From the IMG/VR virus record IMGVR_UViG_3300009488_000018, positions 32,001 through 96,000 of that record: a stretch of DNA of 64,000 nt. One strand, given 5' to 3'. How positions within the stretch are numbered: position 1 is the stretch's first letter; each line of letters starts with the position of its first letter. The DNA comes from a virus. The translations under genes and the position numbers were made by a program. This document shows, piece by piece, positions 32,259 to 61,949 of this stretch. The notes beneath the pieces were generated by a model that made no database searches, was not told the DNA's origin, and worked only from the letters and a program-made list of their open reading frames with translations.

Positions 32259-32704
32259 TAAAGGAGAATAAAATGAACGAAGAAACAGTAGAACTAACAT
32301 TTGATGACATTGAACCTTTACAAAAGGCTTTAAATGAAATGAACCCCAGTTCGGGTGGTCTTGAATATAAAGGTTTCTTTTGGGACTGGAGGATGGCTCA
32401 AAATGCTTTAGAAGATTTGAAGGAAAGGCAAGAACATTTACAAGAGGAAGAGTAAAATGAAAAAGATACTAATAATGTTGTTATTCCTTGGTGGATGCGT
32501 AACAACTCCAGCAACATATAATCCAGTAGCAGAAAGACAGTTAGAACGTCACTATGACTCACGAGGAAGATACAGTGGTTATACTCAAATAAAGATATAT
32601 AAAGATGGAAGTGTTGTTAAAGAACATTTTGATAAGAAAGGAAAATACATAGGACGTTCTCGTATAAATTAAATGAATACTAGAACTTAGAAAGGAGAGT
32701 AAGA

Positions 32705-33826: not shown

Positions 33827-34635
33827 TAAGAAAATGCACATGGTATACAAAACTGGATATAATCACTTTCTAAAAAAGGTGAAGAAATGAGAAAAATATT
33901 AAGTTTCGAAGAAGAAAACGGACTTTATGTTTGTCAAATGCAATATAAAGAGGAAACTACAGGTGTAGCTTACCTTACTAAAGCAGAATTCTTTCGAGCA
34001 AAACTAGAAGAGAAACTTGAGACAATTGACCCTTCTTTAGTTAACGACTTAAATAAAGTTATTGATCTTACTATAGAAGAAGTAGAAAGTTGGTAGATTA
34101 AAATGAGAAAGTTAACACTTAAATTCATAGATGCTTGGAAAATATACTCAGAAAAAGCACCAGTAAATTATCTTGGACCACAACTTAAAGCAAATCAAGC
34201 TTACAGAATTATTGAACCATATTTAACTGGAGATGAAAAGTTCTTATTAAGCGTAGCTCGAAATCATTCTTCTATTGGAGAGGGACGAGAAGAATTTGAC
34301 GATATTTGTAAACAAATCAGACAGAGGTTAAAGTTAGATGAGAAAACGAGCAGTAAAAGATACAGAAAAAGAAATTGATGACGAACATGATTTAGACTTC
34401 TGGAGGAATAGAGGTTTATACTTCTGTACTAAGTGCTTCCACTCTGCAAAAGAAGCATCAACATGTATCAAATGTAGAGAAGAAGCAGTATACCTAAATA
34501 GTCTACGAGTAAGACCTCCAAGACAGAAAGCATCTAAAATGAGATGGAGAGAATTTTTCGAAACATGGTTACCAAATATAGATTTTAGTAATGCGTGGGA
34601 AAGAAGAAAATTGTATCTAAAAAACAGGTAAAGAA

Positions 34636-34941
34636 ATGGGAGAAATAATCACATACATATCTGATAAAAGACATGAAGGCATTCTCCTCATTCTCTGGAT
34701 TTCAATGGGTGGTATATCACTTATCTTCATGATAATCTTTGACTTTCTTAAAAACAACGGTAATATAATTGCTGATCTTGATGGTGATGACATGATAATT
34801 ATCATAATGTTTATGATGTTAGGACCGATGGGCGGTGCTTTCACAATAATAATTTACATGAAAGAATATAAAGAGTATAGAGAGAAAGCCAAGAAAGACG
34901 CACGATGGTGGGAACTAAGAGAATATGGAGGATGGAAATGA
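34636..34941 (+). CDS. Two-TM membrane protein with C-terminal WWELREYGGWK
   Basis: Two hydrophobic segments. Confidence 0.65.
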   Translation: MGEIITYISDKRHEGILLILWISMGGISLIFMIIFDFLKNNGNIIADLDGDDMIIIIMFMMLGPMGGAFTIIIYMKEYKEYREKAKKDARWWELREYGGWK

Positions 34942-35249
34942 GAATATATCAATTACTTTCTACACTGAGTACAGATCCTAAAATCTATGTTATTATTTGG
35001 CTCTTATTACCTACTATAATGATCATGACTCTTTTAACCATCGATTTATTCCGACGTGGTATTAAAGAATTTAAAAGAAAATATATAAACGGTTTTCCCT
35101 TTACGGGTTGTTTAATATTAATACTCTTTGGTCCAGCAAGTTGTGGAGTTTTAATAGTAGCTTACAAAAACGCAATAAAAAAAGAAAGAGAAAAAGCTGC
35201 AAGAATGTTTCCATGGTGGCAACTCAAAGAATATGGAGGATGGAAATGA
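34938..35249 (+). CDS. Two-TM membrane protein with C-terminal WWQLKEYGGWK
   Basis: ATGA overlap with the upstream gene; two hydrophobic segments. Confidence 0.65.
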   Translation: MRIYQLLSTLSTDPKIYVIIWLLLPTIMIMTLLTIDLFRRGIKEFKRKYINGFPFTGCLILILFGPASCGVLIVAYKNAIKKEREKAARMFPWWQLKEYGGWK

Positions 35250-35446
35250 AAAGTACATTAATAATTTGGTTTTCAATTTCTATCATTACTATGATTTTAG
35301 GTACTTGTATTAATATCAAAAAAAGAGGTTTTAAAAATGCTTCAAAACAAATACTTTACTATTACCCACAGTTTATAATACTACTTTGTCTTGGACCAGT
35401 TACTCCTCTCATGTTTATACATAGATACATACAAACAAAACTTTAA
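35246..35446 (+). CDS. Two-TM membrane protein
   Basis: ATGA overlap; LGP motif shared with the two upstream proteins. Confidence 0.55.
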   Translation: MKSTLIIWFSISIITMILGTCINIKKRGFKNASKQILYYYPQFIILLCLGPVTPLMFIHRYIQTKL

Positions 35447-35662
35447 TAAGAGGAAGATAAAATGGAAGCATGGAAATTAATTATAACTTTGATTTTATCG
35501 ACAATAGTTGCAACATCATTTGGAGTACTAATAATTCCTCCAGAATGTAGATCATTATATATGATATTATCTATAGGAATACCTGTATTAATAATTGGAA
35601 CAATCTGTTACTTTATCATATATATAACAGATAAGAAATTACGTAGAAGAAAAACTAAAACT

Positions 35663-35750
35663 GGTCGAGTGATGTAACTGGCAGGCATATCGGACTTAAA
35701 ATCCGGTGGGGTTTATCCTCGTGGGGGTTCAACTCCCCCCTCGACCACTA
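35663..35750 (+). tRNA. tRNA-Leu(UAA)
   Basis: TCGGA-CTTAAAA-TCCGG, long variable arm. Confidence 0.9.
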
Positions 35751-36091
35751 AGGAGAATATATGAAGTTTATACTATACAAAATCGAAAGATTTCTTATAC
35801 GAATTGAACTTTTCTTCACCGGACACTGGACATATTGTGATGGTTGTAAAAGGTTCAGTCCACAATATTATTGTCCTTATTGTAGATAGCCTAAAGGAGA
35901 ACTGACATGAAAGTATTTCTGACTAAGGCATTTGATGTTACTATCTTCAGAGCATTTACTCCGTCGCCAGCAGGATTTGTACATGAGAAAGTTGCTAAAG
36001 AGTACTGTAAAACATGTAACGATGCTCATCCAGATATAGTTTATGCTTACGAGGAAGTAGAAATCTCTGAAGCAAATAGTTTAAAACCCTA

Positions 36092-36175
36092 GCCTGAGTG
36101 GTGGAATTGGTATACACGCACGGTTTAGGCCCGTGTGTCTTTGACATGGAGGTTCGAGTCCTCTCTCAGGCACCA
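36092..36175 (+). tRNA. tRNA-Leu(UAG)
   Basis: CACGG-TTTAGGC-CCGTG, long variable arm, CCA. Confidence 0.92.
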
Positions 36176-36377
36176 AACATTAAAAGGAGGTAACATGACT
36201 AGTTACAAAAAGGCTCTCAAAAAGTATCAAGAGTCTTTCGGAGACGATCTAAGTTTTTTTAATAAACTAACAATATTTCTTACTAAAGACACTCCGACTT
36301 ACGTACTGTTTTGCCTTGGATTAGTTTTAATCGTGGGAGTAATTATGTTTATTTCAAGTTAACCATATAGTAATCAG

Positions 36378-36464
36378 GTCTGAGTGGTGGAATTTGGTAG
36401 ACACGCTTGATTCAAACTTAAGTGTTCTTAGAACGTGGGGGTTCGAGTCCCTCCTCAGACACTA
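36378..36464 (+). tRNA. tRNA-Leu(CAA)
   Basis: CTTGA-TTCAAAC-TTAAG, long variable arm. Confidence 0.88.
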
Positions 36465-36486
36465 ACTTAGAAAGGAGATTTTCAGA

Positions 36487-37236
36487 ATGAAGTCCGAACT
36501 ATCATTAACGTTCGATAACGAATTTCAGTTATGTTTCAAAAGTTTTACACCAAGAGGAGAGTGGAAACTTACACCAATCAAATATGGTTGTCAAATCGTT
36601 GGTTTTGGGGGTGAAATAGCAATCGTTGTTCAATATGTTACTCGTCAGAGTGGTTACGCTGATGCAATGATCTCAGTTACCGAAGTTGATGGAGAAATTT
36701 TCTTAATGAAAGAACATGTTAAAACTGATAAACTTATTGATACGATTAACAACATGATTAATACAATGTTACCACATGAACCTGGTGAAATACCTGGAGA
36801 AAGTAAATCCCATTCTCGTAAAAAAAGAGATCCTGAAATGAATAAAGAAATATATAATATTGCCTTAACAGAAAAACAAGTAACTGGTCTTCATATTGAA
36901 CCCAGAACTATTGAGAGAGTTATTGACAACATTACCAAACAAGCTACAGATCAGGGATATATTCCCGTTAGAAAAATAATCAGCAAGAGACTTACCGAGA
37001 TCAAGACTGACCTTGAAAATCTTATTTCTGAAGCAGATGGAATTCTCGAAGAAACTGATCCCGAATTACATAAAGCCGCTGCTAAAAAGGGTATGGGCTG
37101 GATAAATATTATAACAGCTTCACTCAGTCCCGAGGAAATGAACGTCTTCAGTGAATCAATGATTTACATGGAAGATACTATTCATGTTTTAGAAGGTTCG
37201 GTAGACCGTGGACTTGGTTTACATGGCCGAGGTTAA
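36487..37236 (+). CDS. Hypothetical protein
   Basis: 249-aa ORF with AAGGAG RBS. Confidence 0.65.
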   Translation: MKSELSLTFDNEFQLCFKSFTPRGEWKLTPIKYGCQIVGFGGEIAIVVQYVTRQSGYADAMISVTEVDGEIFLMKEHVKTDKLIDTINNMINTMLPHEPGEIPGESKSHSRKKRDPEMNKEIYNIALTEKQVTGLHIEPRTIERVIDNITKQATDQGYIPVRKIISKRLTEIKTDLENLISEADGILEETDPELHKAAAKKGMGWINIITASLSPEEMNVFSESMIYMEDTIHVLEGSVDRGLGLHGRG

Positions 37237-37577
37237 ATACACTGTAAGGAGTTAATTGGTAGAAAGAGGAGAAGAAAAAATGTTAAATTACATAAGAAAG
37301 GCAGTTATCTGGTTACAGTGGTATTGGGTCAAGAAAACAAGATGGAGGAAGTACGATACCACCTTACCAAAACAAGGAGAATGATATGAAAAAGAAAGAA
37401 AAAACATATCTTGTAGTACAGTTAACAGAAACCGACGGTGAAATTGTAGTCAAAAGAATGACAGGAGAAGAAATAAGGTCACTGACTCAGGATAGTTCTG
37501 AACAAATAGGTATGACTATTATTGAAGGTAACTTAATAAAAGGACCTGATTCTGTTATAGATCTTAAACATTTATAA

Positions 37578-37653
37578 GCCGGTGTAGCTCAGATGGCCAG
37601 AGCTGGGGTTTTGTAAACCTCATGCCGGGGGTTCGACTCCCTCCGCCGGCCCA
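37578..37653 (+). tRNA. tRNA-Thr(UGU)
   Basis: GGGGT-TTTGTAA-ACCTC. Confidence 0.9.
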
Positions 37654-38188
37654 TTCAAAAGGAGTAAAATGTATAAAGTAACACTTGTGACATTAGAAGG
37701 TGGTAAAAATCTACGCACTAAAACAGTTAAAGGGATAACTAATAAGTTACCCAAAATAAACGAAAGATTTTTCATGGTAAGTAGCGCTTTAGAAAAAGGA
37801 AAAAGTATCAGAACAATAGATACGAGTCCTGTAGAAAGTATTGAATATAGCGACGAAAAGAATACAAGAGTATTTAAAACGAAATATTCTAGATACAAAA
37901 TTACTCACGAAAAAATAAAAGAGGTGAACTATGGACGTACTTTTAATAATATCGTCAATAATAGCAGGACTTGCCACTGATATTATTATTATAATGTTTT
38001 GTTTAATAGTATTAACATCTGTTATATGTTACTGGAAAGAAATCGAAACCAAATTTGAGAACAAACGTTATAAAAGAATATTTTGGTTAAGTTTTGTTAT
38101 CATAGCTACTATTATGATAATAATAAGCTACTCAATAAAAACACCTGGTGAACATCTATGTAAATTTTTAGTCAGCGCAATAAATTAA

Positions 38189-38261
38189 TCGCGGGTCGAT
38201 CAGTGGTTTAGGTCACAGGGCTTTGAACCCTGCAACGGAGGTTCGAATCCTCTCCCGTGAG
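38189..38261 (+). tRNA. tRNA-Gln(UUG)
   Basis: CAGGG-CTTTGAA-CCCTG, U1-A72, G73. Confidence 0.9.
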
Positions 38262-38269
38262 TAAAAATT

Positions 38270-38347
38270 GGGGGTATGGTCTAGTTGGTCAAGGACGTCT
38301 GCCTGTCACGCAGAAGGTCTCGGGTTCAAATCCCGATACTCCCGTCA
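38270..38347 (+). tRNA. tRNA-Asp(GUC)
   Basis: TCTGC-CTGTCAC-GCAGA, G73. Confidence 0.92.
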
Positions 38348-38713
38348 AAAAAGAAAGGAAAATTTCGTGGATCTGAATAATCAAACAACAATACAAATAA
38401 TTAAGTGTGTAAAAGATTATCCGATGGTTGGGGGCTTTGTTAAAAAAGATACAATATTAACAGAAGATTTAGAAACCACAAAAAACGAATTTGATGGTAC
38501 AGTATTCATTTCTAAAGAAGGAACTGAATATCACTTCAACAATAGTGAAATAGTTTTTTCAACAGATTTCCAAAAATCATTTAAGTTACTCTGCAGAAGA
38601 AATATTAGCTAAATTATAAAGGATAGGAGAGAATAAACAAGAAAAAGACTACTATTAAGAGACAGCATGTTCGCTCAAAGAAAACATGAAATGATCGATA
38701 AAATATTAACATT

Positions 38714-39000
38714 GTTAGATTTTAGGAGGTAATAAAATTGACAAAGGTATTGATAATCGAGAGCGAAGCTGGTTGGGGGCGAAAAGTTGAAAAAGAAAAA
38801 GAGTTCGATAGTCGGGAAGAAGCCATACAGTATTGTAAGGATTATAACAACGAATATAATCCGGCTGACAAACCTACCCCAGTATGGTATATGTATGCTC
38901 GATTGGAAGATCAGGTTGAATATGGAATGTTGCGTTAAAAATCTAACCAACATATCGAGCAGGCCAGCTAACGCTAGCAGCTCATGTAAGACTGTTAGAG
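38714..39000 (+). mobile_element. Isolated integron-like gene cassette (ORF 38738..38938 plus attC-like site 38941..39000)
   Basis: Begins GTTAGATTTT; the ORF is followed by its exact complement AAAATCTAAC and a 60-bp imperfect palindrome ending GTTAGAG. Confidence 0.65.
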
Positions 39001-39139
39001 AAGTCAAAAAACTCACAAATAGCAAGATCTTTAAGGAAGAGGTCTGGAACTGAACTAGTTAAGATTTATCGTAGAGAAAAGGCTAAGAGAGGAATAACAT
39101 CAAGTTTAAATAGAATATCAACCAAAACAAGGGAAATAA

Positions 39140-39754
39140 ATGAATCCATTTGGAAAGATCATAGAAAAAAAAGATGGTACCCTGGATGCTATAATGACTC
39201 GCCAACTTACACAAAATGAATTGGAAGGGACAACAGTAGTAAATTTGAGACATATGTGTATTCGCTACTATAACATTCCAGGTATGACCCATAAAAGAAA
39301 AAATGTGATTATCGATGCTATCCTTAAAAAATATAAGACATTAGATAAAATAAAATATCAACTATTTATTTCTGAAAAACAAGCTAGAGTAATCACATCT
39401 GCTCTTGACTTGTTTTCTAGGATAGGAATTGGTCAACTCGAAGAAATTTTGAGACATCCACAATATGCAAATGTAATTTTCAACAACAATGCCACTTACA
39501 AAGTTTGCAAAGAATTATTAGATGAAACAAAAAAGCTTCTTACGAATTTTCCTCCTAATGCATCTTATGGCATAGGAAATCCTGAAGTACATAGCGATTG
39601 TACTATATCTTACGATCTTATGCAAGTTATTAGACATAGACTTGCATGGGATAATAATCCTGAAGGAGGATTACAAGTCAGCTTTGGTAAACCAATGCGC
39701 TTTTCTAATGAAGAAGAATTAGCAAAGATCAAACAGAAGACAACTAAATTTTAG
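39140..39754 (+). CDS. Hypothetical protein
   Basis: 204-aa ORF. Confidence 0.6.
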   Translation: MNPFGKIIEKKDGTLDAIMTRQLTQNELEGTTVVNLRHMCIRYYNIPGMTHKRKNVIIDAILKKYKTLDKIKYQLFISEKQARVITSALDLFSRIGIGQLEEILRHPQYANVIFNNNATYKVCKELLDETKKLLTNFPPNASYGIGNPEVHSDCTISYDLMQVIRHRLAWDNNPEGGLQVSFGKPMRFSNEEELAKIKQKTTKF

Positions 39755-39828
39755 CGCCTGTAGCTCAGTGGATACAGAGCACCAGGCTACGAACTTGGGG
39801 GTCGGGGGTTCGAATCCCCCCAGGCGTT
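39754..39828 (+). tRNA. tRNA-Arg(ACG)
   Basis: CCAGG-CTACGAA-CTTGG. Confidence 0.92.
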
Positions 39829-39861
39829 TCACAAACTAGAACAAATCTGAAGAGGTTAAAA

Positions 39862-40038
39862 ATGTTTCCAGAATTATTAGTACATCCACTAACTTGGATA
39901 ATATTAGCTTTTAATACAGCAATATTAGCACTTATAATATGTATTCTTATGGGAATACTTATAATAATAATCCTATTGTTTTTTCCAGAAAGATCAAAAT
40001 TAAGACAACGACTTGTAGACTTTGCAAGCCAAGAATAA
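39862..40038 (+). CDS. Small hydrophobic membrane protein
   Basis: GAGG RBS; MFPELLVHPLTWIILAF...; below the ORF-track length cutoff. Confidence 0.55.
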   Translation: MFPELLVHPLTWIILAFNTAILALIICILMGILIIIILLFFPERSKLRQRLVDFASQE

Positions 40039-40093
40039 ACGCCTGTAGCTAGAGCACCAGGCTACGAACTTGGGGTTCGAATCCCCAGGCGTT
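40039..40093 (+). pseudogene. Internally deleted copy of tRNA-Arg(ACG)
   Basis: Near-identical acceptor stem, identical anticodon arm and T loop; D loop and variable region missing. Confidence 0.8.
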
Positions 40094-40104
40094 CTATAGA
40101 GAAG

Positions 40105-40548
40105 ATGTATAAAGAGAAATATAAGATGATAAACAAAATATATAAAATAGCTGAAATTAATGATCCTTTTTATAGTAAACTAATTCAAGAAACATGTACA
40201 GAACTACAAATTAATCTACATAAAAGGGACGAGAAGAATCAATCATTTATTGCTGGAAAAGACATTTTCTTAGGTAAGTATGAAGACGAAGAACTAATGA
40301 TTATCTCATTCTTTCATGAAGTGGGACATATTTTAGTCAAATGGAAATACAAAAAAAGAACAAGACTTAACACTCTAATGATCGAACTAAAGGCATGGGA
40401 CTTAGGTATTCAATATGCATTAAATAAAGGGTTATTATTTTCCGACAATGCTCTCAAGTGGGGTTACGAACGGGCGATAGGATACGCAGGGCATGATAAA
40501 AGAGAACGTGTAGGATGGAAATTTAATAAACATGCTTTAGATGTTTAG
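40105..40548 (+). CDS. HExxH metallopeptidase-like protein
   Basis: FFHEVGH...ELKAW. Confidence 0.55.
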   Translation: MYKEKYKMINKIYKIAEINDPFYSKLIQETCTELQINLHKRDEKNQSFIAGKDIFLGKYEDEELMIISFFHEVGHILVKWKYKKRTRLNTLMIELKAWDLGIQYALNKGLLFSDNALKWGYERAIGYAGHDKRERVGWKFNKHALDV

Positions 40549-40822
40549 AGTACCAAAATTAGAAAGGAAATAAAATATAATGGCAGGAATAGATAAAATT
40601 TATGGAAATAAAGCGCAGTATAGTGAACTTCGTTCTTGGTGTGAGAGAAATAAACCAGAGGCATTATTATATTTCTATCCTTGGGAAGGTGAATGGTTGA
40701 CGGACAATGAACAACATCCCATTACTAATTTCCCAGAAAAAATTGATAAGTGGCTCTTAAAAAACTGTACTCTCAGTTGGGTAGTTAAATACATCAAAGA
40801 GCAGTATGGTAACAGATTATAA

Positions 40823-40896
40823 ACGCCTGTAGCTCAGTCTGGGAGAGCGTCGGTCCTACAAACCGACAGTCATAGGTTCAAACCCTATCAGGCGTA
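40823..40896 (+). tRNA. tRNA-Val(UAC), C33
   Basis: TCGGT-CCTACAA-ACCGA, A73. Confidence 0.85.
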
Positions 40897-40903
40897 TAAT
40901 TAT

Positions 40904-40980
40904 AGTACTGTAGCTCAGCGGTCCAGAGCACGCGACTTATAATCGTGAGGCCGATGGTTCGAATCCATCCAGTACTACTA
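40904..40980 (+). tRNA. tRNA-Ile(UAU)
   Basis: CGCGA-CTTATAA-TCGTG, A73; body resembles tRNA-Ile at 9453. Confidence 0.9.
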
Positions 40981-43891
40981 AAACTTAGTGGACATAAAGT
41001 AGAGACGGGGAACTTTACAAAGGAGGTAGAATGAGACCAGGCGATAGAAAACAAAGATGGCAGAGTACATGTACCATTGAGGGAATAATATTATTCCTGA
41101 TTGGGTTGTTTTTTGCCTACTCTGGATTGATGGCTCCAAGAAACGGTTGGATCGTTTTATTAATAGCCTTGGGTGCATTATGGGGGTCAATGAAATCTTT
41201 TACTGATGCAAAACGCGGATGGAAGATGACGGATAAGCGCCCGCCTTGGGCTGATAGGCATGACGCTATAGACAGGGGCGATTTAACATTATATAAAAGA
41301 TACCCTCATTGGCGACCTAATATACAATCTAACAAAGTACTCAACTCCAAACCAACTAAAGCTGGCGGGGTTAATTAATTGTTAAGGAGAGTCTTATGAT
41401 TACACCATCAGAGAGAATTCAGGCAGTTAAAGAATGGAACGAGTCAGGGTTTCATGAGTTAACGTGTGGAATTGATTCCAACCATCCTCCACTCGTAGCG
41501 GCAGAAACTCCATTTGGCGTGTATCTCTTCTGTACAGCGAATAAATGTGGATATACTCAGCCATTTTGGAAAGTCCCAGCTGTGGTATGGTTATCGTTTT
41601 TTGAGCGACACGCCTCCCCACAAGTCACTCAAGATGAAGTAGACTCACCATGGTTTTGTATTGAATGTAAACATGATGGCAATACAGGCCCAAAGTGTGA
41701 CAATTGCCTTATGCCACGCCGATGATCTTAATTTGGGAGGCTGACAATGAAAAAAGCTATATGCAATCGTGTAGATCTTAAACATAAGAAATGCCAAATA
41801 ACTTCATGTTATCATTATAGCATACATGAATCAATAGGATGTGAAAAATGGCACGAATGTCATTACTACAAAGTGCCAGTTAGATGCTTTTATGTCTCCA
41901 GAAGAATATGGAGTGAAGAGAGAAGACTAGAGCAGCTTAGTTCAAATATTAGGACGAATTCTAAAGGAGACATTTATGAGTTTATATTATGCTGAAACAG
42001 GTCTTGGTTGTTGTATTAGAGAAGCAACCAGTTTAAAAAATGCAAGAAATATAATTCTTAGAGAGGTTGGTACATATAATGGTCCCAAAATTGTTCGTAA
42101 GGCCAGTAAAGATGATATAAATTGGGTTAATAGTATGGGTGGATATGTACCAAAAATTCACCCCCAACCAAGTACTTAACTCCAAACCAGCCAAAGCTGA
42201 TTAGTTTTTCGTTATGTTTCAAGGAGGATAAAATGAATGAACAACTTTATGAGCAAGCATCAGAGGCTATAGAAAAATTGTTCTCTGATAAATCTGTATC
42301 ACAAGAACAGGCAAGGGAAAATTTGGAATCACTCATTGGTGAAATCGAAATAATGCTTGAAAGTATGGAGGAAACCTAACAACGCGCTCAACTCACTGTT
42401 AGGATTCAAACCAAATAACAATAACGCAGTATCTTAAGTGTAGACAATCCAGTAGTTGTGAGGGTTAGCTCCACGTTAGATTGCTCTTTAAGGAGTTATT
42501 ATGAGTTGTAAAGAAGGATATAGGGGCGAATGTTGCTGTGAGTGTGAACATCAACTTAAAATCCATGTTTGCACTTGTGGAATCTGCCCCACCATAGAAG
42601 GATATATCTGTATTTTATCCCATGTCATAGATCATAACTATCATTGTACCTATAAGACGAATAAGCATGGTGCGTGTGAGTGTTTTATGTTGAGAAAGTA
42701 ATCGAACAAAACACTCAACCCAGACCCATAAATATCAAGCTGATGAGTTTTGTTATACAGAAAGGAGGAAAGAGATATGAGTTACTTTTGGTTTTCATTT
42801 TCTAAGAATGGGAAAAATCAGGGATGTATTAATGTTGAAGCTGATACATCAGAAATAGCAATGAAAAATGCGATAGAATTAAATATCGTACCAAAACATG
42901 ACGATGTCGAAACATACAAAATCGATGAACCAGAGATACCCATTAATGTTTTAGTGTCTCCAGAAGAAATGAAGCAGATGGAGTATGATTCAGTAAAATA
43001 TAAAAAAAACTCAACCTAAACCCATAAATATCAATTTTGTTATGCCGCTATGTATGGTGCAAGATCATACTCATCGGGGGCAGTAAACCTACGGGCTGCT
43101 GGCTGTCTATGGTGCCTGAGATGGAACCAGCTAGCGGCATAACAAATCGCTGAAGTCGGAATCGGGAATGCTATGGAGTAAGTGAAGAACCCGAGTGCAC
43201 TTGGGTTGCAGGTGACCGAGCCTGACGTTCCCGAATTTTCCTTAGCCCAACTGATTAGTTTAATGTTATACAAAAGGAGGAAAGATGAAGAAATGGCCAG
43301 AGGATGGTTCTACGGTACAGTTTGCAGAAATAGTTGAGTCCGTCAGAAAGGCAATACTCTTTGCATATAATATTAAAAGGAAAAACAGGAATAGAAGCAT
43401 ACCTTGGGATGGACTTGATATTGGAAATGATTCAAAAGCGACTTGCTTTTCTCCAGAGGAACAACTTCAACTAGAACATTTGCGTTATTCTGAAAATGAT
43501 CAAGGACGGGATGCTCTAGATGAAATACTAAGTATAGCTGTCCGATTAGGGATTGAACAAGGACAGAGGATTTTTAAAAAAGGTACAGAATATCAAATGA
43601 TGAAAATACGGTTGAACTTAATAGAAAATCTAACAAATCACTCAGTCCAACCGAACAGACCAACTGGTTAGTTTAACCGTTAACAATCCTTCTTCAGGAG
43701 ATTAATATGCAAATATGTAAATTTTGTCAAAAGTCCTATGATGTAAAAGAAACCAAAAGGGTTTTCGGTGATATGTGGTGGATATACATTTATTGCTCTG
43801 CACAATGTTATACAAAAGATCAGGTTGTTAACAAAACACCTAACTCAGACCATGCTAACCGTCCGTCCGGATGAACTCAGCTGCGTAAAAC

Positions 43892-44535
43892 TCTATATAA
43901 AATGTAAGTGAAACTGCGGGCCAGGCTTTAAAAGAAAGGAGATAAAGGCCATGCGAATAATTAAATCCAAAAGATTAATGTTACTACTCATTAGTTTCGC
44001 TTCGATCTTTGCTCTTGTAACGACCTCTCTTGCACAGGAGAAGATTAAGCTCGCGGGGAAGCGATACGGGGTCAGAACTAAAGCGGAAGTGATTAAGCTT
44101 GATGACACCAAGGGGCACATCCTTATCCTCTCGGAGTCAAAGGGCACCGATGCCACTACTGGTGCCCAGTTTGTTAGCACTGCATTCGGTGATTATATTA
44201 AGGGAAATGGACCACATTGGGGCTACGGAAAAGCTATAGACCCAGATGGCGATGTCACTTTTAGTACATTTAAATCAAAGTTTACCACCACCCTTTCCCC
44301 CGAAGGCAAACCGATCACTACATTTGAAGGGACTTGGTCTTTCACAAAAGGAACTGGTAAGTATGAGAACGCCCAGGGGGGCGGCACCTTCAAGGGAAAG
44401 GTTATAGGACCAGGAATATTCACATATGATTGGGAAGGCGAATACTCTATTAAGAAGTAAGAGACAGCCTTCTCTTACAACCCCTAGTATTACAATCTTT
44501 TGCTAGTTCGCAGTTTCACTTACATTTTATATAGA
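43892..44535. mobile_element. Element bounded by perfect 27-bp terminal inverted repeats, carrying one gene
   Basis: TCTATATAAAATGTAAGTGAAACTGCG (43892-43918) / CGCAGTTTCACTTACATTTTATATAGA (44509-44535). Confidence 0.7.
43951..44460 (+). CDS. Secreted beta-rich protein
   Basis: Signal peptide ending SLA-Q; GTWSFTKGTGKY; visibly higher GC than the flanks. Confidence 0.7.
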   Translation: MRIIKSKRLMLLLISFASIFALVTTSLAQEKIKLAGKRYGVRTKAEVIKLDDTKGHILILSESKGTDATTGAQFVSTAFGDYIKGNGPHWGYGKAIDPDGDVTFSTFKSKFTTTLSPEGKPITTFEGTWSFTKGTGKYENAQGGGTFKGKVIGPGIFTYDWEGEYSIKK

Positions 44536-45026
44536 ACATAACTAATTAGTTTTTCATTGGGCGGTTTCGTCCAGAAAGGAAAATCATGAGCGAGAAATTA
44601 ACTGATGAACAAATTAAGAACTGGCGCGAAGTTCTTGTCGGAATGATTGGACCATACGCTCTAATAATGCCAAGGGAAGAAATCCAGGCATTTCGTGACA
44701 AAACGCAAAATGCCGTCCAACAAGTCGCTCAACCAAATCTGGATAAACCGGCAGCTTAATTCTGTCGTTAGACTATACAGGAGATCATAATGATAGAACT
44801 AAAACGATACACCATAATGTCAAGTGCTAAGGGTCCAAATCGTGATACTATTGAAGATCCAGATGGACAATGGATCTTCGATCCAGGTCATAAGATAAAT
44901 TTAGATAAATCCAACGATCGTCGTTGTGAATATTGTGGTGCTGAGAAGGATCCAACAATAAAAACTTTGTGTGGCAAATGCCGTATGTAAGAGGATGTTA
45001 AACCAAAGAAATAACAGGAGGTAAAA

Positions 45027-46010
45027 ATGAAGACCGTAACTTCACAAGCTGAATTTGAAGAGAAGCTAAAAGAAGGTTTGAGATCTTTTAAATTTAAGGG
45101 TTTCAGTGGTGTATTGAAGGGAGATACTCATATTCATCTTTATGGTAATTCTCAAGCCTATCTACTGGGAAACTCTCACACTACATTACATCAAAGCGCT
45201 TTTGCTGCATTATGGGGAAACTGTCATGCTAGGCTTCATGACAGTTCTCATGCCGTGTTACGAGGTAACTCTTCTGCTGAGCTACATGGAACCCCTTATT
45301 CTTCCCCCCATGTTTCACTTCAGGACAATTCTTATGTCATACTACGCGGACATTCTCATGCTGATTTATGGGGGCATTCTTTTGCTGAGATACGGGAAAG
45401 TTCTCATGCTATACTACGGGGATATTCCCAAGCTATATTATGGGGACATTCTCATGCTGATTTACGTGATGATTCTTTTGCTGAGCTATGGGGAAGTTCT
45501 TCCGTTATCTTACAAGGGAGATCTCGTGCTATGCTACGGGATTTCTCGATAGGTTATCTAAGGAGCAAGAGAGCAAAGGCTAAAGCTGGAAAACGTGCAA
45601 CCATAATTGAAATGATCTACCCTGAAGATATCAAACAATGGGCAGCACTGAAAAGGGTGTGTATTAGACGAAACAGAATAATGCTTTGGAAAGCTGTGAG
45701 ACAAAATGGTACTGACTTCTATACTGGTCAAGTTAATTATGATACTAAGAAAGAAATTACCGCACCAGACTGGGATTCGAAATATTCTCAAGAATGTGGT
45801 TTTGGTTTGCACCTTGCCGATTCTCCTAGTGCTGCACGACTATTTTGTTCAAGAGATCAGCGTAAAACTGCCCGGTTATTCCGAGTGTCAGTTAATATAA
45901 ATGATTGTATCTGCTTTCCAGGCATGCCACATTATCCAATGAAATTACGAGCACGAGCATGTCGGAAAGTGAAAGAATATCCAATTAGTTATAACCTTTG
46001 GGAGGAGTAA
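45027..46010 (+). CDS. Octapeptide-repeat (beta-helix-like) phage protein
   Basis: Tandem G/D-x-S-x-A-x-L-x units; C-terminal ECGFGLHL. Confidence 0.7.
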   Translation: MKTVTSQAEFEEKLKEGLRSFKFKGFSGVLKGDTHIHLYGNSQAYLLGNSHTTLHQSAFAALWGNCHARLHDSSHAVLRGNSSAELHGTPYSSPHVSLQDNSYVILRGHSHADLWGHSFAEIRESSHAILRGYSQAILWGHSHADLRDDSFAELWGSSSVILQGRSRAMLRDFSIGYLRSKRAKAKAGKRATIIEMIYPEDIKQWAALKRVCIRRNRIMLWKAVRQNGTDFYTGQVNYDTKKEITAPDWDSKYSQECGFGLHLADSPSAARLFCSRDQRKTARLFRVSVNINDCICFPGMPHYPMKLRARACRKVKEYPISYNLWEE

Positions 46011-46156
46011 TATTAGACTAAATACTTCAGAGAGGAGGTGAATAAGGAGTGTGGGGAGCCACAGCAATTATAGTAGGTTTCGTTATACTTTGGATTATAG
46101 CTATCAAGCTTATAACGAATAGGTAGAAACCTTAAAGAGAAAGAGAGGTAGTTAAG

Positions 46157-46516
46157 ATGAAAAAAGGAGAAATAAAATTACTTAGCTGGGGTTTCGTGAT
46201 TGGCGCAATTGTAATGCTTATTTTCATTTTCGCGTCAGGATGGGCAGTGACAAGAGGCTCTGCCAAAGCTAAAGGTGAGGAAATGGCCAAACAGGCTGTT
46301 ATAGACCAACTGGCACCGATCTGTGTCGAGCAGTTTTTACAGGATCCAAACAGGGAAGAGCTATTTAAGAAGTTGGAAAAAGAAAGCTCCTGGAGACGGG
46401 GTGATACTGTAAAAGAAGCAGGTTGGGCGGCAATGCCTGGCGCCAAATCTCCTGCTCCTGGTGTTGCCGATGAATGTGCAAAACGGCTCATAGAGCTCAA
46501 GAAGACCAAGAAATAA
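46157..46516 (+). CDS. Membrane-anchored periplasmic protein, probably host-derived
   Basis: N-terminal TM, LAPICVEQF, GWAAMPG, VADECA. Confidence 0.65.
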   Translation: MKKGEIKLLSWGFVIGAIVMLIFIFASGWAVTRGSAKAKGEEMAKQAVIDQLAPICVEQFLQDPNREELFKKLEKESSWRRGDTVKEAGWAAMPGAKSPAPGVADECAKRLIELKKTKK

Positions 46517-46534
46517 GTGATATGAGCTAGGTGG

Positions 46535-46631
46535 TAGCAAGACATGAGAAGTATTCGGGCAATGGGCAAGTGACTGCAGGCATGACCCTAATCTTGAATG
46601 ATTAATCCGTAACGCTTCTCATGTTTTGTTA
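46535..46631 (+). ncRNA. Candidate structured RNA (~97 nt)
   Basis: 18-bp terminal stem with G.U pairs; inner ATTCGGG/CTTGAAT stem. Confidence 0.5.
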
Positions 46632-46651
46632 ATTTGGCCACTTAAAACTAA

Positions 46652-46726
46652 GCGCCTGTAGCTCAGTGGACATAGAGCACAAGATTTCTACTCTTGGTGT
46701 CGTGGGTTCGAATCCCTCCAGGCGTT
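46652..46726 (+). tRNA. tRNA-Arg(UCU)
   Basis: CAAGA-TTTCTAC-TCTTG. Confidence 0.9.
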
Positions 46727-46729
46727 TAA

Positions 46730-46804
46730 GCGTTCGTAGCTCAGCCCGGTAGAGCGGGAGGGTGAAGTCCTCCGTCGTCAGAGGTTCAAATCCTTTCGAG
46801 CGCA
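46730..46804 (+). tRNA. tRNA-Phe(GAA), G32/G37
   Basis: GGAGG-GTGAAGT-CCTCC. Confidence 0.87.
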
Positions 46805-46812
46805 CTTTTCAT

Positions 46813-46885
46813 GCGTCCGTAACTCAGTTGGTAGAGTACAGGACTTTTAATCCTGGAGTCGCAGGTTCAATCCCTGCCGGACGTA
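46813..46885 (+). tRNA. tRNA-Lys(UUU)
   Basis: CAGGA-CTTTTAA-TCCTG. Confidence 0.92.
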
Positions 46886-46980
46886 TTAACAACAGTTTCT
46901 AACAAACATTTATAGAACAAATAAATGTATAAATGTTAGATCGTAATAACATTATCTACCAGAAGAAAGAGAGGCAAAAA

Positions 46981-47115
46981 ATGAAAGAAACTGAGTATTA
47001 GATAAAAATCCCTCCATAGGCTCAGCCAAGAGGTCCTCCGAACTTTTAAACTTTTAAGGAAATTTTGTCAAAACGTCAAAAAAGTTTAAAACTTCAAAAG
47101 TTCAAAAGGAGGACT
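46981..47115 (+). promoter_or_regulatory. Putative leader-peptide translational attenuator (MKETEY*IKIPP*AQPRGPPNF*) with RBS-sequestering hairpin
   Basis: GAGAGG RBS, ATG at 46981, in-frame TAG at 46999 and 47017, TAA at 47047; GGTCCTCC (47032-39) pairs with GGAGGACT (47108-15). Confidence 0.7.
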
Positions 47116-47119
47116 TGTC

Positions 47120-47425
47120 ATGCATCCATTAACAGAAATCAAAAACCAACAAAAAGAAAGAGGGTTTACAATACGTAAACTCAAAAAAGAAAGAAAAGGA
47201 ATCAAAACCGAAGACGAATTTTCCAATACATTATGGAGCTTATACAAACTTCGGATCGAGTTCAGACATACTCATATTGCTTATTGTGAAGTAAGAGGAA
47301 AAACTAGAGAACAGATTGAAATACCCAGAGAAGATAATCAACCCAATGAAGACAAAATTAGTAAGGTTAAAGAGGAAATTATTGGGAGGATTAGAGAACA
47401 TGAAACTCTACGTAATAGTTCGTAA
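47120..47425 (+). CDS. Hypothetical protein, first gene after the leader
   Basis: FRHTHIAYCEVRGKTREQIE; overlaps the next gene. Confidence 0.7.
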   Translation: MHPLTEIKNQQKERGFTIRKLKKERKGIKTEDEFSNTLWSLYKLRIEFRHTHIAYCEVRGKTREQIEIPREDNQPNEDKISKVKEEIIGRIREHETLRNSS

Positions 47426-47693
47426 AGATCTTACTTCATCGCAACAAGCAGTTCAAGCTGGACATGCACTTGCAGAATATTTACTTAGAAGATCATGGAG
47501 TTCTGATTGGAATAACGGAACTTTAGTTTATCTCGGAGCAAAAAATAAACTCGAACTAGAGAAACTAATGTACAAGCTTGAAATGAGAAATATAAAGTGG
47601 GTTAGTTTTATTGAACCAGACTTAAACAATGAAGTTACTGCTATAGCAACAGAATATGATGGTAGTTTAATATCTGGACTAGACTTGTTGTAA
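47400..47693 (+). CDS. Peptidyl-tRNA hydrolase type 2 (Pth2)-fold protein
   Basis: KLYVIVRKDL...QQAVQAGHA...FIEPDL..EVTAIA. Confidence 0.75.
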   Translation: MKLYVIVRKDLTSSQQAVQAGHALAEYLLRRSWSSDWNNGTLVYLGAKNKLELEKLMYKLEMRNIKWVSFIEPDLNNEVTAIATEYDGSLISGLDLL

Positions 47694-47701
47694 ATAGTGA
47701 A

Positions 47702-48445
47702 ATGGAGGATATTATGTGTCTCGACTGTATCGACTGTAATATAGAACCCCATGATGAAGGTTTCAAAATTCTGCAGAGACTAACGTCAGGAATATTTACA
47801 CCGATCTATTTCCCTAAAACGCAATATACATTTAGAAAATGGTTTAATGCCAAAACCTTCGATAAAGATAATGAAATCAAAATAGTTAAAACTTCAGATG
47901 GAAAACCTTATCCAGCTGGATTTCATTATTATCTAAATCTTGAAGACGCTATATCACATGCTGCAAGAAACAGAATAGTTGCTCGAATTAAAATTAAGAA
48001 TATTCTTGTAACTGGTCTTCAAGACGAGAAACAAGCCGGAGTTTCAGAATATATAATGTTAATGAAAATAGTTAAAGATACTATACCAGTTGAGAAGTAT
48101 AGAATTAATCCACAAATAAATGATATCATAACTGAATCTCTGAAACCCTTACTAAATATACTAAGACATAGTCACGGAAAAGTTAGTGACAAAACAGTAC
48201 AAAAAATAGGAGAGTTAGTTTCAGAAACAGATGAAAACTTCGTTGATTATGTCACAATTGTAGACAATCTAAGAAGACAAGGAGAAGCATTTAAAACTGC
48301 CACTACAATACACTATAGAGCTTTAAAGTTAGTACCGAGATATTTAGACTATCATACTAGAATAATGTCATCAGACTCATCTCTTCTAGACAAATTATCT
48401 TCTCGTAAAAATGAGCTTTTCGACCAGGGGTATCGAGACTTGTAA
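47702..48445 (+). CDS. Hypothetical protein
   Basis: 247-aa ORF with YPAGFH motif. Confidence 0.6.
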   Translation: MEDIMCLDCIDCNIEPHDEGFKILQRLTSGIFTPIYFPKTQYTFRKWFNAKTFDKDNEIKIVKTSDGKPYPAGFHYYLNLEDAISHAARNRIVARIKIKNILVTGLQDEKQAGVSEYIMLMKIVKDTIPVEKYRINPQINDIITESLKPLLNILRHSHGKVSDKTVQKIGELVSETDENFVDYVTIVDNLRRQGEAFKTATTIHYRALKLVPRYLDYHTRIMSSDSSLLDKLSSRKNELFDQGYRDL

Positions 48446-48460
48446 CTATACTTTACAAAT

Positions 48461-48535
48461 TCCCCTGTAGCTTAGTCAGGTCAAAAGCAGAGGTCTCTAA
48501 AACCTTGGACGTGGGTTCAAATCCCACCAGGGGAT
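48461..48535 (+). tRNA. Amber suppressor tRNA (anticodon CUA)
   Basis: TCCCCTG/CAGGGGA acceptor, GAGGT-CTCTAAA-ACCTT anticodon arm, GTGGG-TTCAAAT-CCCAC T arm. Confidence 0.9.
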
Positions 48536-48544
48536 TTCATAAAT

Positions 48545-48575
48545 AGAACATAAATACTATATATATTAATTACTG
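48545..48575 (+). promoter_or_regulatory. Tandem AGAACATA and TATATATATTAATTACTG motifs
   Basis: Both recurrent motifs sit upstream of the 339-nt candidate RNA. Confidence 0.6.
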
Positions 48576-48637
48576 TTAAGGAATAAGGTATGGTTGTTGA
48601 CTTGTAGCCGAGTCCCCTTATTCCTCTTTTATTAGTT

Positions 48638-48976
48638 TGAGAAAAACAGAGTTGGTCGCTTGTAGTGACTCTTCAACCTTGCAGTGTATATGTAACGATC
48701 GCAAGAAATACCTGACGTTGGGGCATATATACTGTTTGAGAGAGAAACACCAATAAACAGTGATACCGGCTATGTTGTTAGCCCTAAACTGGCCGACGGC
48801 TGCTCGTGAATCCCAAAACCGGGACACGAACCGGGTCACTGCCAACAGGAGACTATCCTAGAACATTGTATTCGGACGTTCATCTTCGGACGAATATTTG
48901 GTCGGTGTTTGAAATAGTAAACGGTAGGTTTCTCTACTAACCAAAGTAGGGGGAAATCCGTTCTCTGTTTTTCTCA
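48638..48976 (+). ncRNA. Candidate large structured ncRNA (339 nt)
   Basis: 14-bp perfect terminal stem, several nested stems, raised GC, no plus-strand ORF. Confidence 0.65.
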
Positions 48977-49013
48977 TTCATTTTGATTCAGTTAACCTAA
49001 ACGGAGGAGTATA

Positions 49014-49634
49014 ATGAAAAAAATACTCATAGTTACTTTAGTCTTAAGTTTTATTATGGCTCTGTCAGTTCCTACTCTGGCAATCTCTGGTTCACCTCCA
49101 AGCCCTGGTGAGTGGACAGGGAATATCAATGCTTTTCTAGGGATGAAGTATCTTGATGAAGGTGATTGGGAACCCCTTGACGAGCAAGAAGAATTCGGCA
49201 TAAAGGTTGACTTTAAGCAGCAAGGCTGGCCGGTGAGCATTGCTATTGACTATTTATCCTCAAGCGATGATGGAACTATGCTGATGTATCATCCAAGGTT
49301 TGGAACTGTTCCATTCAATTTTGAGGGGGAGACATCGGAGTTATGCTTTGGAGTCCGAAAAATCTGGGACTACTTCCCAACCATGCGACCCTTTATTGGT
49401 GGCGGTATAGCGTTTATTAACGCTGAAATAGAGGGACGTGCGTTAGGAAAAAGACTCTCTGTTGATGATGACGCAGTAGGAATATGGGTCAATGGTGGAA
49501 TATACTGGACTCTAGCTGAACATTTCAACATAGGGTTTGACTTGAGATGGTCCAAAGCTGAGGTCACGTTACTCGGTATAAAAGGTGAAGCTGGAGGTAC
49601 CCACGCTGGGGTATTAGTAGGCTATCATTGGTAA
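49014..49634 (+). CDS. Outer-membrane beta-barrel protein (8-strand OmpW/Ail-like)
   Basis: Signal peptide, RPFIGGG, amphipathic strands, C-terminal VGYHW beta-signal. Confidence 0.82.
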   Translation: MKKILIVTLVLSFIMALSVPTLAISGSPPSPGEWTGNINAFLGMKYLDEGDWEPLDEQEEFGIKVDFKQQGWPVSIAIDYLSSSDDGTMLMYHPRFGTVPFNFEGETSELCFGVRKIWDYFPTMRPFIGGGIAFINAEIEGRALGKRLSVDDDAVGIWVNGGIYWTLAEHFNIGFDLRWSKAEVTLLGIKGEAGGTHAGVLVGYHW

Positions 49635-61256: not shown

Positions 61257-61949
61257 TCAAGGTTGTCTCTTTCCGAACTTGGTTCTTCCAAGTAATTCTT
61301 TCCTTTTGTCTTTCGGAATTCTTCTTGTTCGTGGACGACTAACACTTGGTGTCAGTTTAAGTAACTGATCTCTAAATTCAATCGCATTTAATGAACAAAA
61401 ACCATAAGCTTCGTCAAGTCTTGTAAAGAAACGATCTATAGGTTCTTTTATTGGCTTTCCAATAATAGACACTGAAAGTTTATAATTCGTAAAATACATT
61501 ATAACTTGATGATTCATATCTTTCTGTTCTTTACTTAAAGACTTATCTCTTATATTCAAAACAAAATGAAAAATCTCATGAAAAAGAACTGTCAAAGCTA
61601 AATGTTTATCTTCTGGAGTTACCATAACTTTTATATCTAACAAACTATGACTCTTTGTATAAGCTACACCAAGAAGATCATTAGCTCGTTCGTCTTTCCT
61701 TCCTACTACTAATATTGTAATTCGCCCTATTAAAGTCGTTAAGTCAATCCGACTAATCTCACACATCTTATCTAAATAATTATCAAAGCTATCTTCTAAG
61801 TAACTACTGTATTGGTCAAATCTTTCGAGAGAGTCTTCTAAAGTAGCCCTAATCTTCTTTTTCCTTCTATATTTTCTTATAACTCTTTCTTCGAACAACA
61901 ATCCAATCGGAATTCCAGTAGTAGTAATCTCTTTAGTCTTATAAATCAT
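61257..61949 (-). CDS. HExxH-containing hypothetical protein
   Basis: VLFHEIFH. Confidence 0.5.
   Translation of the reverse strand: MIYKTKEITTTGIPIGLLFEERVIRKYRRKKKIRATLEDSLERFDQYSSYLEDSFDNYLDKMCEISRIDLTTLIGRITILVVGRKDERANDLLGVAYTKSHSLLDIKVMVTPEDKHLALTVLFHEIFHFVLNIRDKSLSKEQKDMNHQVIMYFTNYKLSVSIIGKPIKEPIDRFFTRLDEAYGFCSLNAIEFRDQLLKLTPSVSRPRTRRIPKDKRKELLGRTKFGKRQP

Follow-up and report, generated by a model that had tools for sequence, protein, structure and literature searches.

The window analysed here, a 64,000-nucleotide stretch of viral DNA (bases 32001–96000 of the single 124,327-bp contig in IMG/VR record IMGVR_UViG_3300009488_000018), carries a compact module made up of a leader open reading frame (ORF) with two in-frame UAG codons, a gene for a 101-residue protein (ORF101), a gene for a protein with a fold similar to that of archaeal Pth2 (the PTH2-like gene) and a tRNA with a CUA anticodon, tRNA(CUA). 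The locus is very probably a suppressor-gated translational switch that heads this module. An earlier note on the same DNA had proposed a switch that answers to stop codon readthrough, and the comparison of related sequences supports this reading through conservation of the design, the existence of a second gating architecture and covariation of the leader stop codon with the anticodon of the neighbouring tRNA. The whole case is computational and is built on sequence comparison and structure prediction.

Organization of the leader and the operon

The module occupies the plus strand and consists of the elements listed below, which were read directly from the sequence unless another basis is given.

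46969–46974, plus strand: GAGAGG, the Shine-Dalgarno-like sequence of the leader, 6 nt ahead of the ATG at 46981
46981–47049, plus strand: leader ORF, MKETEY-UAG-IKIPP-UAG-AQPRGPPNF-UAA; design kept in relatives
46999–47001 and 47017–47019, plus strand: the two UAG codons of the leader
47029–47040, plus strand: RGPP arrest-type motif (AGA GGT CCT CCG)
47031–47116, plus strand: predicted hairpin (RNAfold) with the Gly-Pro-Pro codons and downstream bases in its 5' arm and the Shine-Dalgarno sequence of the next gene in its 3' arm
47047–47049, plus strand: TAA stop codon of the leader
47108–47112, plus strand: GGAGG, Shine-Dalgarno sequence of the 101-residue gene, predicted to be paired in the hairpin (probability of pairing 0.67)
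47120–47425, plus strand: ORF101, a small, basic, all-helical protein of 101 residues and the conserved partner of the PTH2-like protein
47400–47693, plus strand: PTH2-like gene, 97 residues, with a 26-nt overlap with ORF101 (Pfam PF01981, fold)
48461–48535, plus strand: tRNA(CUA), an amber suppressor tRNA of 75 nt (ARAGORN; Rfam tRNA model, 67.4 bits)

The upstream motif, ribosome binding site, leader frame, both TAG codons, RGPP motif and TAA all lie where the earlier note had placed them. The downstream genes that it had listed (a hypothetical ORF, an overlapping gene with a Pth2 fold, a further ORF and an intact CUA tRNA) are present as well. The leader is 22 codons long, including the two UAGs, with RGPP three codons ahead of the stop. 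It contains no hydrophobic stretch and thus is not of the "monitoring substrate" type, which has an N-terminal signal or membrane segment. The tRNA(CUA) has a normal cloverleaf without a long variable arm (ARAGORN), and its closest counterpart among the tRNAs of the same virus is Arg(UCU), at 75% identity.

Conservation of the module and of the in-frame TAG codons

Relatives were collected by a search of IMG/VR with the PTH2-like protein, which gave sets of 16 and 80 loci; 68 non-redundant loci were used for pattern counts. A tRNA(CUA) on the same strand is found in 16/16 and 76/80 of the loci, mostly 280–335 nt after the start of the PTH2-like gene and 10–50 nt past its stop. In one subgroup it lies ~140 nt ahead of the gene. 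The four loci of the 80 that do not have it include one cut by a contig end.

Nearly every locus displays, upstream of its ORF101 homologue, a short ORF with a start of its own and one or two in-frame TAGs followed by a proline motif (RGPP, RAPP, RSPP, RDPP or xPP-stop). The following leaders are representative (asterisks denote stop codons):

E*VARPP*GQSRGPP*, MRRS*IFIPP*INESRGPPS, MIWT*ARAPP*, MK*INNYLNQQFRGPPW
MT*VNIPRSPPY, MTAFYFP*IRDPPF*, MK*VLKPP*, MT*TSKHPP*

A pattern defined as a start codon, TAG after no more than 15 codons, and PP or [RK][AGS]P after no more than 15 further codons is found in 53/68 loci, and the same pattern with TAA or TGA in 3 and 4, respectively. A stricter version of the pattern gives 43/3/0 matches for TAG/TAA/TGA and 2/9/8 on the reverse strand. 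TAG is the rarest of the three stop triplets in the leader regions (629 occurrences against 1439 of TAA and 872 of TGA). At the position that it occupies in the leader, TAG was never swapped for CAA or CAG in the leaders inspected. The design is kept across dozens of loci whose proteins are only 41–64% identical. Each of the features that the earlier note had expected relatives to share, namely the frame, TAGs, PP/RGPP motif, hairpin and CUA tRNA, is retained.

The reading frame itself is constrained. Of the 67 loci used for this analysis, 27 contain an R[GASD]PP motif, against an expectation of 0.0047 per window as calculated from the remainder of the loci. Over the 45 nt that precede this anchor, which was taken in any frame, the triplets are distributed over frames 0/1/2 (frame 0 being that of the motif) as follows:

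TAG: 44/3/10
TAA: 6/20/8
TGA: 1/13/19
ATG: 20/4/9

Different loci write the motif with different synonymous codons, namely AGA, AGG, CGG or CGT for Arg, AGT or TCT for Ser, and any of the four Pro codons. Since TAG is held in frame and the motif is kept as amino acids, the constraint is therefore on a translated peptide that runs through TAG. Furthermore, a six-frame reading of the 124-kb genome contains a single R-[GASD]-P-P tetrapeptide, the one in the leader.

The terminal motifs have counterparts among known arrest peptides, the phage leaders drawing on precisely the set RGPP, RAPP, RSPP and RDPP. RAPP and RGPP are reported to cause robust arrest across varied N-terminal contexts and to be refractory to EF-P, RSPP and RDPP to be partly permissive for arrest, and RGPP to be the most under-represented tetrapeptide in many phyla (Fujiwara et al., PMC12992588). 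The shorter leaders, which end in xPP-stop, may slow ribosomes too: slow termination after a C-terminal proline is reportedly a finding of Hayes et al. from 2002.

Two groups of relatives have leaders of a different make. A subfamily within loci L105–L184 (e.g. MKKNSFW*VSDQFW*LRQIRGPDV and MNSFW*ITDQHW*LKRIRSPNI) contains two "FW/HW-TAG" units followed by I-R-[GS]-P-[DN]-[IV], a distinct, conserved, stall-like ending with a single proline. At L018, L019, L022 and L024, the leader has no start of its own and is located ~370–420 nt ahead of the PTH2-like start. Here, it is a readthrough extension of a conserved upstream ORF ending in ...C..EW.D[DE]-TAG, so that the stop codon with which a real gene ends also acts as the first codon of the sensor.

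A second gating architecture

In 13/68 loci, most of which lack ORF101, the PTH2-like ORF is gated directly by a TAG at codon 3–6 (e.g. MT*INRKMYVIVR, MK*ITNRLYVV and MK*VQKLYVV). The corresponding counts for TAA and TGA are 3 each. This form is present in a cultured virus, Acinetobacter phage vB_AbaM_ME3, in which an annotated tRNA with anticodon CTA is followed by ME3_196 and then by TAG-gated ME3_195 (ATG ACT TAG ATT..., leading into the annotated gene). Neither architecture was recognized by script in only 4/68 loci, one of which (L023) reads MT*INIRASP* by eye and another (L020) is cut by a contig end.

Match between the stop codon of the leader and the anticodon of the linked tRNA

A second scan of IMG/VR was seeded with distant members of the family. 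Of the 162 loci read, out of more than 450 phage PTH2-like loci in that database, 113 non-redundant ones were used to compare the leader stop with the anticodon of the linked suppressor tRNA:

CUA only (n = 92): TAG leader in 72, direct TAG in 14, either in 83, neither in 9
UCA only (n = 2; L128, L137): TGA-only leader in both, MKRI-TGA-TRN[KR]GPDN-TAA
UUA only (n = 2; L170, L177; Lak-phage-like): TAA-only leader in both, M[EK]LQHW-TAA-...RG(S)P

A leader that matches with TAA only or TGA only is found in 1/92 of the CUA-only loci. The direction of this covariation, as judged from the sequences, is exactly that predicted for a sensor of the cognate suppressor.

In Lak-type megaphages (L097, which is Prevotella phage Lak-C1, MK250029.1; L170; L177), the linked suppressor is UUA and the internal stop of the leader is TAA. 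Lak phages have been described as TAG-recoded, and a UUA tRNA that reads both UAA and UAG in them would be of interest.

A predicted hairpin masks the Shine-Dalgarno sequence of ORF101

RNAfold pairs 47031–47039 with 47108–47116, which takes in the Shine-Dalgarno sequence GGAGG, and forms additional AT-rich inner helices. The pairing of the Gly-Pro-Pro codons with the Shine-Dalgarno region and the inner helices postulated in the earlier note are thus reproduced. The 101-nt stretch has a predicted folding energy of –28.3 kcal/mol (z –4.4), and only 1/200 shuffled sequences folds equally well. The 24-nt sequence of the 5' arm occurs only once in the window.

The sequence of the stem differs from locus to locus. 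The upstream regions of ORF101 in 40 loci, in which the proline codons lie 52–110 nt ahead of the ORF101 start, have a z of about –2.96 (median –2.95), compared to –0.48 for 123 other Shine-Dalgarno-bearing genes of the same loci that were folded identically (p = 3e-13). The mean probability that the Shine-Dalgarno sequence is paired is 0.66 in these 40 loci and 0.48 in the controls (p = 1e-7).

The second UAG is 12 nt upstream of the stem. On the basis of textbook ribosome footprints, a ribosome terminating at this codon (A site at 47017–47019) would reach ~47030 and thus stop a single base before the stem. Arrest with CCU in the P site and CCG in the A site (47035–47040) would place the ribosome over ~47020–47051, i.e. 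the whole arm that sequesters the Shine-Dalgarno sequence.

Proposed mechanism

Ribosomes would initiate on the leader, and if a release factor wins at either UAG, translation would terminate ahead of the hairpin. The Shine-Dalgarno sequence of ORF101 would then remain in the hairpin, keeping off both ORF101 and the PTH2-like gene, the translation of which is coupled to it. When both UAGs are decoded by a charged tRNA that reads UAG, the ribosome would reach Arg-Gly-Pro-Pro and stall on the anti-Shine-Dalgarno arm with proline codons in its P and A sites. The stall would melt the hairpin and free the Shine-Dalgarno sequence for translation of ORF101 and the PTH2-like gene. The operon proteins would thus be made only during working suppression and would serve as a readout of the balance between the suppressor tRNA and the release factor. 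The UAGs are probably read through by the UAG-reading tRNA of the operon itself. The tRNA(CUA) is a candidate for this decoder, to which the in-frame TAG in 12/66 PTH2-like genes of relatives points indirectly.

Several observations weigh against this interpretation. Many leaders end in xPP-stop, RSP-stop or RGPD, none of which is a proven arrest core, and the chains are short (~20 residues here and 8–12 in some relatives), whereas the cited work on arrest used longer peptides. The Shine-Dalgarno sequence pairs mainly with codons of the arrest motif in only 22/40 loci, and its predicted sequestration, real as it appears, exceeds that of the controls only moderately (0.66 vs 0.48). Two loci, L057 and L071, show no gating by eye. 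In the larger set, 9/92 CUA-linked loci and 7/14 loci without a detected suppressor are ungated by the patterns used, and the covariation comes from only four non-CUA loci that constitute two related pairs. The tRNA(CUA) is located downstream in the same apparent operon, and no gene that needs UAG decoding was found in the genome from which the window derives. Hydrolase activity of the PTH2-like protein is not assured by its sequence. Catalysis by archaeal Pth2, as reported for the Sulfolobus enzyme, involves the Lys of a GKGK loop and a downstream Asp. In the alignment with the archaeal structure 2zv3, this Lys is matched by Gln (KGK vs "ksq").

Alternative explanations

The switch could sense release-factor activity (lowered RF1, due to host depletion or a phage anti-RF1 factor) instead of the phage tRNA, which we regard as unlikely. 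Because readthrough is a competition between tRNA and release factor, the same leader would answer to both, two consecutive UAGs would make the response steep, and autoregulation of prfB demonstrates that sensing of termination efficiency is a strategy that exists. However, the leader stop changes with the anticodon of the linked tRNA, and UAA is among the stops so matched (to UUA). As both release factors read UAA, a UAA leader next to a UUA tRNA is more in keeping with sensing of the tRNA. If no suppressor were present, two successive UAGs would very rarely be passed by near-cognate decoding, and the tight linkage to the tRNA gene (76/80 loci) also points to the tRNA.

There is little to recommend an ordinary arrest-peptide leader in which TAG is a sense (Gln) codon and the arrest answers to the PTH2-like activity, Pro-tRNA or EF-P. 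One internal in-frame TAG is carried by 12/66 PTH2-like genes, several of them aligned with Gln, and none of the genes carries TAA or TGA. The phages in question (L025, L048, L049, L050, L052, L056, L061, L064, L072, L076, L082 and L083) probably read TAG as Gln, as far as these alignments go. Yet TAG occupies a fixed early position in 53/68 leaders without being replaced by a Gln codon in those inspected, and the stop turns into TGA or TAA when the tRNA changes. The design is also kept in a genome in which TAG is a stop codon. As the earlier note had maintained, the present phage uses UAG as a stop: TAG terminates 31/144 of its ORFs of at least 100 residues. Thirteen pairs of ORFs in the same frame are joined by TAG in this genome; in the 9 of these 13 that were scanned with TAG read as Gln, no Pfam or PHROG family crosses the TAG. 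Long in-frame extensions follow TAG in 4/31 cases and TAA in 12/86, i.e. without an excess for TAG. Recoding of TAG in this genome was thus rejected, as TAG is a common terminator, no family spans it in the 9 pairs scanned and extensions are not in excess.

The prospects of an RNA-level sensor are poorer still. In such a T-box-like element, the stop triplet would pair with the suppressor anticodon and the RNA would refold without translation; direct codon–anticodon pairing would also be expected to produce the stop/anticodon covariation. The TAG, however, is in frame with a Shine-Dalgarno-bearing ATG and with the downstream motif (44/3/10), the motif is kept as amino acids via synonymous codons while other stops are barred from that frame only, and the leaders are only 30–110 nt long. 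No T-box or other cis-regulatory Rfam family was found in 46880–49050, where the only match at E values up to 1 is to the tRNA, and tRNAs are also the only Rfam matches at gathering score across the window.

We give hardly any credence to a minigene model, in which an M-x-stop ORF, like lambda bar, produces peptidyl-tRNA that the PTH2-like protein deals with and RGPP codons serve solely as the anti-Shine-Dalgarno sequence. Many leaders do begin with M-x-TAG, and the link between Pth and minigene toxicity is established for lambda bar. The model leaves unexplained the PP/RxPP motif in frame with TAG, leaders with 6–12 codons ahead of TAG, the match between stop and tRNA, and the TAG found inside the PTH2-like ORF elsewhere. 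Least probable of all is a chance short ORF beside a generic intergenic palindrome, which is refuted by the frame test, the 53/68 leader pattern and the 113-locus covariation, and is at odds with a design found in dozens of loci of 41–64% protein identity, a 5' arm unique in the window and an RGPP-type motif unique in the genome.

The PTH2-like protein and ORF101

The PTH2-like protein matches Pfam PF01981 with 24.8 bits (cut-off 23) and PHROG 3668 ("hydrolase") with an E value of 1.2e-11, and the profile of its family matches archaeal Pth2 (PDB id: 2zv3) with an E value of 1.3e-5. Its AlphaFold2 model has a pLDDT of 94.7 and is similar to 2zv3 (Foldseek TM-score 0.79, probability 1.0). The family invariants are Q-x-G/A-H and E-P-D; the Asp of the latter (D74) lies outside the part covered by the 2zv3 alignment.

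ORF101 is predicted with a pLDDT of 96.7 to consist of three long helices. It has no Pfam family, no PHROG and no match to a PDB fold at E values up to 0.001. In most loci its homologue immediately precedes the PTH2-like gene, and in L081 (positions 799–1362) a single 188-residue fusion protein combines ORF101 with the PTH2-like domain, which argues that the two work together. The predicted complex of the two proteins scores 0.18 against a mark of 0.32 and counts neither way; the gene overlap, conserved adjacency and L081 fusion suggest a joint function.

The PTH2-like gene is almost always linked to a suppressor tRNA, and synthesis of its product appears to have been made dependent on suppression twice. 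Both observations suggest that this protein acts on the tRNA or on the consequences of readthrough. The part of a rescue gene that the earlier note had assigned to it, with minigenes and peptidyl-tRNA as the rationale, may be taken as a conjecture of this kind. Our preferred guess is that the target of ORF101 and the PTH2-like protein is the suppressor tRNA or the readthrough ribosome, which would close a feedback loop on suppression. Three roles of the pair can be envisaged, and we would lean, loosely, to negative feedback or homeostasis first, then to cleaning up after readthrough, and last to positive feedback or commitment, with each of them tentative.

PTH2 has been described across jumbo phages and proposed to rescue ribosomes after tRNA cleavage (Iyer et al., PMC7824862). 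The word "suppressor" does not occur in the available text of that paper, which contains no linkage to suppressor tRNAs or gating by stop codons. In Stenotrophomonas phage RAS14 (L099) and Xanthomonas phage Xoo-sp13 (L100), a PTH2-like domain stands behind a domain with an HD motif (FHDIGKP), in the vicinity of a gene for valyl-tRNA synthetase or for glutamyl-tRNA amidotransferase. The 3.2-kb stretches around these fusions contain no suppressor tRNA, and the fusions were excluded from all counts.

Other features of the operon and the window

Two further elements belong to the operon:

46913–46921, plus strand: TAGAACAAA, a repeated, strand-consistent motif and candidate promoter-associated element heading the operon
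47702–48445, plus strand: ORF247, 247 residues, between the PTH2-like gene and the tRNA

The TAGAACAAA motif has 10 matches in the window against 1.97 expected, a number reached by 0/100 shuffled sequences, and may be a phage promoter or another regulatory motif. The nine other sites are at 599, 11376, 14661, 16659, 18632, 19836, 30265, 39837 and 62666; the sites in the window's left part, like that at 62666, are on the minus strand, and the three sites from 30265 to 46913 are on the plus strand. A scan for sigma-70 promoters found no enrichment (6 against 7.6 expected). ORF247 has no family by Pfam or PHROG scan and is probably an insertion, because the tRNA directly follows the PTH2-like gene in most relatives. 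Just past the tRNA, at 48578–48634, a 10-bp stem (GGAAUAAGG/CCUUAUUCC) that encloses a large loop precedes UCUUUUAUU. This arrangement is terminator-like; the fold of the stem and U-run does not reach significance (z –0.95).

The contig resembles that of a phage, and the window contains 30 tRNA genes as well as a match to a QueC-like PHROG. A blastn search against phage records returned matches to tRNAs only. Near-identical DNA is found mainly in sequencing runs labelled as subsurface, sediment, marine-sediment and cold-seep metagenomes (runs X1–X24, of which X2–X4 and X22 were compared with the window). An RNA-library run (X22) contains contigs of a relative ~95% like 46894–47492; these may derive from DNA carry-over and are not evidence of transcription. 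Among the strain differences listed, all lie outside 46963–47059; there are 142 more besides these, and no claim is drawn from them.

Four candidates for further amber-gated genes in the genome (M-x(1–5)-TAG-ORF) have no Shine-Dalgarno sequence and look like chance occurrences. At 61257–62642 on the minus strand, two 230-residue ORFs in one frame are split only by a TAG followed immediately by ATG. No family spans this pair, which is probably a chance adjacency, though it would be a candidate readthrough fusion if the suppressor is active. A 327-residue ORF at 45027–46010 is made up mostly of a degenerate ~10-residue repeat (…L.G.S.A.L…H…) and has no Pfam family.

Relation to known systems

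The elements of the switch are known from elsewhere: control by arrest peptides, sensing of charged tRNAs by leaders, sensing of termination by prfB and engineered TAG leaders. The closest likeness is to arrest peptides with RAPP or RGPP cores (ApdA, ApdP, ApcA, SecM with RAGP, and the RAPP/RGPP upstream ORFs of Streptomyces), in which, as described in the parts of the sources available, a small upstream ORF with an R-[AG]-P-P core (RSPP and RDPP variants included) places the stall site over a stem-loop that hides the Shine-Dalgarno sequence of the next gene (PMC7897499, PMC10987492, PMC10951233, PMC12992588), an arrangement that is predicted here. Unlike these peptides, the phage leader is far shorter (8–25 residues) and has no signal or membrane segment, so that release by a pulling force does not apply. 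Its input is readthrough, with one or two in-frame stops that match the neighbouring suppressor tRNA, and the regulated genes are phage-encoded and, in place of localisation machinery, specify a PTH2-like protein with its small helical partner. RAPP-like upstream ORFs have also been reported to regulate genes beyond protein localisation; the words "phage", "amber" and "stop codon" are absent from the portion of that text examined (PMC12992588).

Attenuation at trpL and hisL and the TnaC stall likewise use translation of a short leader to report decoding activity and alter a downstream operon. In contrast to them, the codon sensed here is a stop codon, and the output would be unmasking of a Shine-Dalgarno sequence, not termination of transcription, and would be on when the tRNA is present. 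In prfB, which encodes RF2, an early in-frame stop senses termination efficiency and sets the expression of a translation factor, but this occurs by a +1 frameshift within the same ORF, without a suppressor tRNA, arrest motif or hairpin-masked Shine-Dalgarno sequence. Engineered amber leader switches for unnatural amino acids also tie expression to amber suppression through a TAG in a leader (PMC6412442, available portion). Those are synthetic and work through rut sites and Rho-dependent transcription termination, whereas the phage element is natural, widespread and combines an arrest motif with a Shine-Dalgarno hairpin.

The "code change modules" of stop-codon-recoded phages, composed of a suppressor tRNA, an aminoacyl-tRNA synthetase along with a release factor (bioRxiv 10.1101/2021.08.26.457843), resemble the present module in that genes for stop reading are clustered with a suppressor tRNA. 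The module described here differs in having a PTH2-like gene, ORF101 and its own putative readthrough sensor, and in occurring in a standard-code phage; "hydrolase", "leader" and "readthrough" are absent from the accessible text of that preprint. The jumbo-phage PTH2 genes of PMC7824862 are alike in belonging to the same protein family, as far as the available text goes. In the literature searched, no stop-codon-gated leader and no link between PTH2 and suppressor tRNAs was found, though supplementary tables of recoding papers might list such pairs. The available parts of the papers on recoding and theta ribozymes contain no natural stop-gated arrest leader matched to a neighbouring suppressor tRNA.

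Implications

How phages with suppressor tRNAs time and control the switch in stop codon meaning is an open question. The portions of the recoding literature at hand propose tRNAs, synthetases, release factors and ribozymes, and no sensor. The element described here would be a natural reporter of working readthrough tuned to the phage's own tRNA. Reporter constructs could address the question directly, and the direct-gated form is available in the cultured phage vB_AbaM_ME3. The findings also point to the PTH2-like protein and its three-helix partner as components of stop codon reassignment. As its motif suggests, the RGPP arrest core may be used outside the control of protein localisation, and in viruses. 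For work on genetic code expansion, the element would be a compact natural part for gauging suppression efficiency.

Homologues of the PTH2-like protein are also found in Lak phages. With a standard-code genome here, and TAG-reading relatives and Lak homologues elsewhere, the module spans standard-code and recoded phages. This distribution agrees with a published proposal in which acquisition of suppressor tRNAs precedes recoding (bioRxiv 10.1101/2021.08.26.457843, in the text available).

It is possible, if rather doubtful, that the module is a self-contained controller of the state of the genetic code, in which the leader measures readthrough and the protein pair acts back on the suppressor tRNA. 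The target would be the peptidyl or aminoacyl form of this tRNA or its competition with the release factor, and the action would set or lock the level of stop codon reassignment during infection. If this were true, the feedback loop would let phages carry suppressor tRNAs safely and evolve recoded genomes.

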